Assembly (NCBI GenBank): GCA_024679065.1
Contig: JAGIQG010000043.1
Coordinates: 1,240,001-1,304,000 of the forward strand
Length of the DNA: 64,000 bases
Source of the DNA: Sphyrna mokarran
Lineage: Eukaryota
Direction: 5' to 3'
Shown here: in pieces, positions 6,035 to 9,000 of the stretch
Position numbering within the stretch: the first letter of the stretch is position 1
How the letters are laid out: each line of letters begins with the position of its first letter
The notes under the pieces: model-generated
Seen by the model: the letters and a program-made list of their open reading frames with translations, nothing else
Database searches by the model: none
Told to the model about the DNA's origin: nothing
Made by a program: the position numbers and the translations under genes

Positions 6035-9000
6035 GTGAGATATGCTTGATAAATTCAAATGACGTGAGTAAGGACTTCGATCCAGTAAATAAGGAACTAC
6101 TATTTCCACTGAAGCTTAGTAACTGGAGAGAGGGATGCTCATTGAAGAAAATCGGTACACGTAACATATTGAGAGGAGAAGAATTATCTTAGATACTGAT
6201 ATGGAAGACGTTGCCTTTAAGGGTGCTGGAAGGAGACTCAGGAGGAACGTTCAAAAGCAGGAGTTGGATACAAACTTGAAGCGGACGACAGGTGCAGAGA
6301 TATAGGGGAAACAAAAAGGAAGGGATGGGGTCTAACTGGATAAGTCTGTCATAGATCCAGCAGAGGCATTGGGGGTGGACTGGCCTCCAACTGTGTTGTG
6401 CGGTGATAAAATGTGTAATTCGACACACACATTTCACTGAAAACAAAATAATGATAGTTAATGGTTCGGTAAATATTGTGTGGCAATCAATAATAATTGA
6501 TTAAACGAAAATACGCAGGTTTTGAATCAGAGAATGCCTACAGTTTATAAAGACACTATTACAACCATAGAGCTACAGAGTCCTGTGGTGCAGAAAGAGG
6601 CCCTTCGGCCCATCAAGTCTGCACTGAACACAATTCTATCCACAATCATACCCTCATATCCTGACATATTATATCCACTAATCCCTCTAACCTCAGATAG
6701 CTGGACACCAAGGGGCAATTTCTTAGCATGGACAATCAACCTAACCCATTCGGTCCATCGACCTTGCACCGACAGTAAGTCCATTCCAAAACGCAAAGCG
6801 TTTACCCTGATAGTCTCACAAACGCTCATGGATTTACATAATTTAGACTGGCCAATCTCACACTCACCTATACGTCCTTAGACACTCAGCGGCAATTTAG
6901 CGAGGCTAATCTACATAACTTGCGCATCATTGGACACTAAGGACAATGTAACATGACCATGACACTGGAGGTGCACATCTTTGGATACTGAAGTTCAATT
7001 TCGCATGGCCAATCCGCCTAACACAAACGTCCTCTGATATTGAGGGGCAATTGAACATGGACAATCTACATACTCTACATATTTCGAGTACTGAGGAACA
7101 ATTTAGCATGGGCAATCCGCCAAACCTACACATCTTTGGACACTACGGGGCAATGTTACACAGCCAATCCACCGAATCTATGCATCTTTGGACTTTACGA
7201 GGCAATTTAGCATGGTCAATCCATCTAGCTGACACATTTTGAGACACAGATAGGTAACTTAACATGGCTAATCAATCTAACCCGTGCATTTTTGGAGTGT
7301 GGGTGAAAACCAGAGCACGCTGGAAGAAACCCGATAAGATACGGGGAAAACGTGAAAACTCCAAAGCCAGAATTGAACCGAAGGCACTTGTTCAATATCA
7401 CCTGTCTGGATAAAAAAAAGTGAATTATCTCCATTGGCAATATGGGCAATTGGAGACGGGGTGAGGAGAGGGTGGTTTCAATTAGAACGTTAAGCTAAAT
7501 CGTTAACTCTGGATAAACGTTAACTGCACAATGTTAACGGAGAAGATGAAACTAAATATAGATGAGAGAAAATATTCGCTGAAAAATCGGGCATTGTCGA
7601 AATTCTTTGAGTTATTATCTTCACAAATATCTGGAATTAAGTATAGACTGATAATAATTAAACCATTCTCCTTTGTCGGAAAAAAAGAACATCTCATTCC
7701 CTAATGTGTTTTAGGCAAGGAAAACTCATCCATACGATTCTACAGCTGTAGCAAAAGCGGTTTAATCTCAACTGTCCTTCAAGGGCAACTCAGATGAGCA
7801 ATAAATGCTAGCCAGTCAGTGATACCCACCTCCCATGAATGAATAATAAAAAAAATAAATTTAAAACAGTTCCCATTCGTCCATTCGAGTATTTCAACCA
7901 ACTTTACGGGACTACGGAGTTTGTTTCCGCCCTCAGAAAGTAGAATTAATAATGGCGCATTCAACGCTACAATCAGCGCAATGTTAATTGAGAAAGAAGA
8001 ATCCCAATCATTGTATCTGTGTTGGATGGGGGAATTCTCTATAACCTGACATGACACTCGTTTTCTCTCTGTTTCCAGTTTCAGTGTCTCAATCCATCGT
8101 GTCCCAGTCTCCACCAGTTCAGACATTCCCGGTGGGGAGTCGTGCTAAACTCAGCTGTCACATCCAGGTCTCAGGTAAAAGCTTCGTATTGTGGTATAAA
8201 CAGCGAGAGCACAGTGACACGGAGCTGGTTTACACAACAACAAAGCAAGCCTCAACGGCGGGAAGATTTTCCAGTGAGTTTTCTGACAAAGAGCATGATT
8301 ACTCACTGATCATTGAAGACACCCGGAAAAACGATTCTGGGATGTATTACTGTGCAGTGCACAATTTCCAAAATCGTGCACTAATATTCGGAAACGGCTC
8401 CAAGTTAGTGATTACAGGTACATAATACCATTTTATCCATTGCAATTACATATGAATATCATTTAACACGTTTCCTGTTCCAATTATTGCAGGTTAAAGG
8501 TGATTCATTAGTATCACAATTTGCCTCACTAACACTATAATAAACTTGCTGTGAACGTCTCCAGATTGATGGGTTCTTTTTTTGTCGGATTTAGAGGGTC
8601 CTCCCAACATATTGCTCCTCACTCCTCCGCTGGTTGAGATTCGCACCATGGCAAAAGTCCCGTTATTGTGTTTGGTCAGAGGCTTGTCTCCTAATTCCTT
8701 TCCCATCAGCTGGAATGTTGCCGGGCAGGACACCGAGGGGCAAATCGATTCTTGGACAATAGAACCGGATGGAACCTACACCGTCAGCAGTTACATCAGC
8801 CTCCCGGAGGAAACTTGGAGCAACGGCGCTGGCTGTACTTGCGCCCTTCAGATCAACACTGGTGATCATCCTTTGAGCGCAAGTGTCTCAGCTCAGAGAG
8901 GTAAATATTCGTAAGACCATTCATAAATATATCAGTTTTGAAGTGAGTATTTACTGACGCCCATGCTTATAAATTCCAAATCCCTCGATTTCTGATTGTC

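Follow-up and report, generated by a model that had tools for sequence, protein, structure and literature searches.

The described system closest to the locus studied here is PRARP/VJC1, reportedly built from a single-exon VJ, one C1 domain, a transmembrane (TM) segment and an ITIM/ITSM-like tail, arranged as a gene pair and found in bony fish, amphibians and reptiles. PRARP is known as a single gene pair, reportedly linked to the MHC or an MHC paralogon and expressed by lymphocytes as disulphide-linked dimers. Teleost NITR, KIR/LILR and SIRP are clusters of paired activating and inhibitory IgSF receptors, and TCR alpha carries basic TM residues for CD3 assembly and a short tail. The PRARP/VJC1 genes are said to have been presented as non-rearranging gene pairs by Fu et al. 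2019 (J Immunol 202:1992) and Ohta et al. 2019 (J Immunol 203:1882).

PRARP is named among joined-VJ genes in the available parts of PMC10751288 and PMC11599192. UrIg is a secreted chain of VJ plus three C1 domains, and UrIg2 combines VJ with nine C1 domains and a TM segment; both form homodimers and are expressed in liver or gill (PMC12227049, in the portion available). Germline joining is documented in sharks, the joined NS4 genes of the nurse shark matching their split counterparts at up to 99% identity (PMC2193156, in excerpt). Intact VJ-C1 genes are sought as candidates for the gene that was split by the RAG transposon (accessible sections of PMC12227049 and PMC10751288).

Here, we analysed a stretch of 64,000 nucleotides of the Sphyrna mokarran genome (assembly GCA_024679065.1, contig JAGIQG010000043.1, positions 1,240,001 to 1,304,000, forward strand), hereafter the window, in which a sequence-only reading had pointed out a V exon already joined to J. 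The gene carrying this exon, gene A, is neither an Ig nor a TCR gene, and neither a somatic nor a recently re-joined product. It is an intact, non-rearranging VJ-C1-TM-tail gene of a large cluster, and probably encodes an inhibitory cell-surface receptor of a PRARP-like family. For a gene of such kind, a joined VJ exon alone is an expected trait, and the part of interest is the cluster rather than the exon.

Structure of gene A and of the adjoining gene B

Homologue-guided mapping gives gene A six exons, intact, for a product of about 303 residues:

5992..6034, + strand: leader exon, split leader with a phase-1 donor (tblastn against the N-terminus of a Mustelus homologue, leader scan, splice check)
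8079..8417, + strand: single VJ exon, with V-set domain, 11-residue CDR3 and FGNG J motif, without RSS
8595..8900, + strand: C1-set constant exon (PF07654, E 4.6e-9; AG/GT, phase 1)
10496..10615, + strand: connecting peptide with a conserved Cys, and uncharged TM segment (splice check, alignment)
10750..10808, + strand: cytoplasmic exon 1 (homologue-guided mapping, splice check)
13378..13422, + strand: last coding exon, with TxYxxL (TVYARL) and stop (tblastn; acceptor read from the sequence)

Exons 1–5 join in frame and without a stop in the splice check. The VJ exon is stop-free, encodes a 112-aa V-set domain (PF07686, E 8e-17), is preceded by a CAG acceptor and followed by a GT donor, both in phase 1, and closes on YYC-AVHNFQNRALI-FGNGSKLVIT. 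The description of 8079–8417 as a germline V exon with a complete CDR3 and a canonical J motif thus holds, the exon being open and its paralogues and homologues being joined as well, and the phase-1 donor noted directly after FGNGSKLVIT is indeed a GT in phase 1. The distance from W to the second Cys is 53 positions, in agreement with the 54 residues first given if these are counted inclusively. The introns, whose retention had been held against a processed retrocopy, are confirmed, and a retrocopy is rejected on that ground. No RSS with four mismatches or fewer occurs between positions 5500 and 14000 of the window, nor an Ig octamer within 400 bp upstream of the leader.

Exactly one C1 domain follows V, and its best 60 PDB matches are Ig heavy-type constant domains and UrIg2. 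As the Foldseek matches listed for the AlphaFold model of the V domain (pLDDT 81) are all TCR entries (48/48), the term ‘TCR alpha-like’ used by the sequence-only reading is fair as a description of the fold. The TM segment has zero charged residues, hence zero basic ones, and is preceded by a Cys whose column is invariant in an 18-sequence alignment of homologues. The tail ends in TVYARL, a TxYxxL motif which we take to be ITIM/ITSM-like. In the public DNA run X1, a contig is identical to the window across 8148–8411, a segment spanning the Cys, CDR3 and J motif; this run may be the assembly's own source and is therefore not independent support for the joined exon.

About 11 kb 3' of gene A lies gene B, of a second VJ-C1-TM-tail subfamily:

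18361..18415, + strand: leader exon (likely), from a leader scan; resembles B-type N-termini
18995..19324, + strand: VJ exon of the second subfamily, with degenerate J (QNGPT) and in-frame TGA at 19072–19074
19416..19745, + strand: C1-set exon, 3' end approximate (PF07654, E 3.6e-8)
21694..21795, + strand: exon with Cys and uncharged TM segment (tblastn with B-type tails; sequence)
30496..30558, + strand: last coding exon (likely), with LYATL tyrosine motif

Owing to the in-frame TGA in its V exon, gene B is a pseudogene in this assembly; in run X1, the TGA is unchanged and one extra base is inserted. With the adjoining gene B dead, the partner of gene A would come from elsewhere or be gene A itself.

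In B-type V exons (loci L012, L013 and L060, and window 19075–19324), the CDR2 region bears an additional Cys pair and the J is degenerate, with QNGPT in place of FGxG; CDR3 length differs among several B copies, unlike A copies. The introns of both genes and positions 33000–64000 of the window are dense in LINE-like reverse-transcriptase/endonuclease fragments, as judged from ORF translations. One stretch of the window is duplicated, with copies near 45.5 and 47.9 kb, and the sequence is interrupted twice by 100-N gaps, at 40124 and at 46705.

The A/B cluster in the S. mokarran genome

On contig C1027, a region of approx. 2.3 Mb (0.61 to 2.85 Mb) holds at least 38 A-type and at least 34 B-type V exons, as retrieved by searches of the shark's own genome; these counts are lower bounds, with 150 of the 421 candidates scored in the A search. 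Further copies were found as a head-to-head pair on contig C894 and on small contigs. Of the 71 junctions along the cluster, 53 show alternation of the two types, versus 36 expected (p 5e-5). For 20 of the 34 B genes, the directly upstream neighbour is a same-strand A gene (12 expected, p 0.0005), a pattern which, like the alternation, fits the duplication of an A–B unit; such an A gene lies directly downstream of 19 of the 34.

An uncharged TM segment and a YxxL exon were present in all 10 A paralogues checked, while 20 B loci of the cluster yielded a B-type TM exon in 17 cases (two with an Arg near the TM start) and a tyrosine-motif exon in 12, one of them degenerate. Among 26 distinct intact A-type V exons (30/33 parsed; loop limits set by eye), entropy reaches 1.8–1.9 in the loops versus 0.89 in the framework, and dN/dS 0.7–0.9 versus 0.41, the loops staying below 1.

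At locus L123 (C1027, approx. 622.6 kb, minus strand), a TM exon of A-like type carries an Arg in mid-membrane and soon runs into an in-frame stop, and a B-type V-C1 ectodomain is located about 9 kb upstream of it; joined by a putative splice, the two would make a candidate activating chain. The B-type protein P0087 of Heterodontus likewise has a TM Arg and lacks a tyrosine motif.

Separate from the cluster, the pair on C894 (2.356–2.397 Mb; loci L044, L081 and L082) consists of one A and one B gene arranged head to head. In a V-domain tree, the A copy of this pair falls together with its orthologues in Scyliorhinus, Chiloscyllium, Heterodontus, Mobula and Leucoraja (100/98), so that the pair may be the conserved ancestral one. 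The surroundings of both sites were screened by ORF searches, which would overlook short exons. In the 200 kb left flank of the cluster, the 100 longest of its 139 non-repeat ORFs yielded a single 7TM hit, plus another match below the cut-off; around the C894 pair, the 100 longest of 167 ORFs gave no match. Neither flank showed other Ig domains. The 7TM hit (L115:183-1175, C1027 520.2–521.2 kb) is an intronless receptor ORF about 90 kb from the cluster edge, with GPR139 as its best PDB match.

All 53 MHC class I matches fell on contig C1548, which is not the contig of the cluster, contigs not being placed on chromosomes. Between 81.0 and 107.6 Mb (L064, L065, L077 and L088), C1548 also holds RSS-12 kappa-like light-chain clusters at 81.0–81.9 Mb, at a distance of about 4 Mb from its MHC class I region (85.8–95.8 Mb), and one more joined V exon at 107.57 Mb. 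Other joined V exons with GxG motifs were seen at L072 and L073 (C224, 87.27–87.35 Mb) and at L076 (C927); the C224 set presumably resembles NKp30.

Homologues, joined state and phylogeny

The joined state is common to the whole A subfamily. All 41 A loci fetched from the genome (38 read directly, two frameshifted and one degenerate copy) are joined, with a CDR3 of 11 residues; none of them has an RSS at the V end, a separate J segment or J array, or an RSS-split A-type paralogue. By comparison, all 13 control V loci on other contigs have a 12- or 23-RSS directly after V, with five mismatches or fewer. RSS-like matches away from the V end occur at four of the 41 A loci (1.6 hits expected in shuffles), three of them being one site shared by close paralogues. 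The nearest rearranging V sampled is approximately 35% identical.

Full-length V-C1-TM-YxxL homologues were found in Mustelus, Cetorhinus, Heterodontus, Scyliorhinus, Chiloscyllium, Pristiophorus, Pristis, Hypanus, Mobula and Leucoraja; the Carcharodon gene model comprises V-C1 only, and the CDR3-J of the white shark homologue is nearly identical to that of gene A. A profile search of 1.84 billion representatives, with names looked up for 30 hits or clusters, added reedfish, sturgeons, gar, bowfin, eel, pike, catfish, coelacanth, lungfish, a caecilian and turtles. Birds did not appear among the 30 clusters looked up. Nor did chimaeras, among these or the named hits, which is weak evidence of their lacking the gene. 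Databases automatically label the homologues as Ig or TCR (e.g. ‘immunoglobulin kappa/lambda light chain-like’), and matches in the ESM Atlas were auto-named V-C1 clusters only.

In a survey of 34 proteins, of which three were not parsed, CDR3 numbers 11 residues in 23 of the 26 readable elasmobranch V domains (the exceptions being one Scyliorhinus with 10 and two rays, of one ray lineage, with seven) and 9–11 residues in all six readable bony-vertebrate ones. On the points that the sequence-only reading suggested comparing, CDR3 length is largely conserved among sharks and rays, and no RSS-split paralogue occurs among the 41 A loci.

In the C1 tree, with 10 other constant-type domains of the same genome as outgroup, the 19 family rows (shark A, shark B and bony vertebrates) form one clade (95/96). 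Grouping shark A C1 with light-chain C domains is rejected (p-AU 0.0005 and 2.6e-6), and a separation of the clade from all 10 outgroup domains together was neither shown nor rejected by the AU test. In a 65-row V tree, shark A falls with lungfish, reedfish, sturgeon, caecilian and turtle (89/89), a grouping left open by two 29-row subsets, with all AU tests non-significant; nor do AU tests reject a grouping of shark A V with TCR-type, kappa-type or sigma-type V (p 0.16–0.35), outgroup labels being inferred from motifs and from the type of RSS. These trees hold zero SIRP rows and do not knowingly include TCR constant domains or IgH V. On these comparisons, the VJ-C1 family likely predates the split between cartilaginous and bony vertebrates.

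Proposed function and alternative readings

The gene A chain would dimerize through V-C1 and the Cys preceding the TM segment, its partner most likely being a B chain in a Fab/TCR-like arrangement, and the CDR loops would bind ligand. In ITIM/ITSM signalling, a phosphotyrosine motif recruits SHP-type phosphatases; the TxYxxL of gene A, once phosphorylated, would do the same. Receptor diversity would arise from gene duplication and divergence rather than from RAG, and the few tailless copies with a TM Arg would be the activating counterparts. The proposal of a fixed-specificity receptor is therefore apt for each single gene, and fails for the family, which is diversified across approximately 70 genes.

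An ESMFold2 model of the Heterodontus A/B ectodomain pair scored 0.58 versus 0.00 for the best control, in a range (up to 0.60) where the calibration passed only 5 of 78 solved complexes and which held all four passing mismatches (of 180). At least 85% of contacts are shared between runs, and the partner has a pLDDT of at least 76. Unrelated proteins, rather than other Ig chains, served as controls, and Fab-like complexes abound among solved structures, so that Fab/TCR structural likeness may account for the pass. A/B heterodimers are thus possible, and the model lends them slight weight.

Several other origins of the joined exon were considered. A somatic rearrangement sampled from lymphoid DNA, or an assembly artefact, has next to nothing to recommend it beyond the rearranged-VJ look. 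The sequence-only reading had named as decisive against itself a lymphoid source with split V and J in other individuals; this explanation is excluded because 41 of 41 paralogues, of a single CDR3 length, and the homologues in other species are joined, with a nearly identical CDR3-J in the white shark and neither RSS nor J array. It is highly improbable that a shark IgL or TCR-alpha cluster was recently re-joined in the germline, after the manner of nurse shark NS4, even though the V-J-C order and short intron are like those of a light-chain minicluster and homologues are auto-labelled light chain-like. Indeed, the nearest rearranging V is 35% identical, versus up to 99% in NS4 (PMC2193156, in excerpt), C1 does not group with IgL C, TM and tail exons are present, and there are relatives in bony vertebrates. 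The C1 clade, the IgL rejection and the V identity together exclude a recent event and make a family older than the cartilaginous/bony split likely; any re-joining would have to predate that split. Of the two origins first offered, never split or re-joined in the germline, the germline joining itself stands and its recent form drops out; the analogy with germline-joined shark Ig clusters falls too, given the absence of a split paralogue, the V identity, a C1 that is not of light-chain type, and the TM segment with its ITIM/ITSM-like tail. An ancient re-joining, which the V trees do not tell apart from a never-split origin, is a possibility to be taken seriously, at less than even odds: an early rearranging V-J-C cluster would have been joined in a germ cell before the shark/bony-fish split, would later have gained its TM/ITIM tail and spread, with a difference in origin only, present function being the same. 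The canonical J motif, the split leader and the TCR-like fold are in keeping with it, as are the V groupings that AU tests do not reject and the germline joining documented in sharks (PMC2193156, in excerpt). However, C1 falls into a separate clade from the 10 sampled C domains of Ig type, a test which is incomplete given that TCR constant domains and IgH V are not knowingly in the trees, and a split relative is absent among the 41 A loci.

The relation to PRARP itself can also be read differently. Since no record named PRARP was among the homology hits returned, we infer membership of gene A in PRARP/VJC1 from its architecture and taxon range, set against the features outlined above for that family; in the supplement of PMC10751288, neither PRARP nor any of five homologue locus ids is listed. 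An elasmobranch-expanded sister of PRARP, rather than an orthologue, acting as homodimers or monomers like NITR/SIRP-type receptors, would suit this absence of named PRARP from every hit list, the YxxL borne by A and B chains each, owing to which neither needs the other chain to signal, and an intact gene A beside a dead gene B. We consider it unlikely in view of the strong A/B alternation, the separate head-to-head pair on C894 and, faintly, the heterodimer model.

To return to gene A as an inhibitory receptor gene of a PRARP-like family, this family is probably known and non-rearranging, and its greatly expanded, two-type shark form is apparently undescribed: the literature searched gave no account of the shark expansion or cluster, which Fu 2019, Ohta 2019, Flajnik 2023, and Dornburg and Yoder 2022 may cover. 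It is likely an old family, common to sharks, bony fish, lungfish and turtles, whose product serves as an off-switch immune receptor. A two-type membrane-bound family ranging from sharks to turtles, with an approximately 35-fold shark expansion, offers testable material on the origin of two-chain antigen receptors, and points to a large NK-receptor-like complex of sharks that is mislabelled as Ig or TCR in databases. More speculatively, and we hold this to be rather doubtful, the cluster could be a RAG-independent repertoire of approximately 70 genes for TCR-shaped, CDR-diversified A/B heterodimers, both inhibitory and activating, derived from a never-split VJ-C1 pair and closer than UrIg/UrIg2 as a model of the two-chain receptor before RAG.

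PRARP/VJC1 reportedly shares with the shark genes a joined VJ without RSS, a canonical J, one C1, a TM segment with an ITIM/ITSM-like tail, two distinct paired genes (here the A/B alternation and the head-to-head C894 pair) and a taxon range that takes in the bony fish, caecilian and turtles of our homologues. Unlike PRARP, the shark form numbers approximately 70 genes, arranged as alternating A/B units, with V domains that vary in their loops and with candidate activating copies. MHC linkage was not seen for its cluster on the unplaced contigs, all 53 class I hits being on C1548. With NITR, KIR/LILR and SIRP, it shares a birth-and-death cluster, inhibitory tails and a rare tailless copy with a TM Arg, but its building block is a VJ-C1 unit of antigen-receptor type, present in two subfamilies that alternate. 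The V fold and the V-J-C-Cys-TM layout are those of TCR alpha/delta, from which it departs by the absence of RSS, J array and basic TM residues and by a long tail with its own tyrosine motif. Germline-joined shark light chains such as NS4 have in common with it a joined VJ followed by one C exon, whereas gene A lacks a close split paralogue, has a C1 outside the IgL group and adds a membrane anchor and a signalling tail (PMC2193156, in excerpt). Finally, gene A shares with UrIg and UrIg2 an elasmobranch host, a non-rearranging single-exon VJ, a split leader and C1-set domains, but these have at least three C1 domains, whereas gene A has one, bears a tyrosine-motif tail and is multicopy (PMC12227049, in the portion available).
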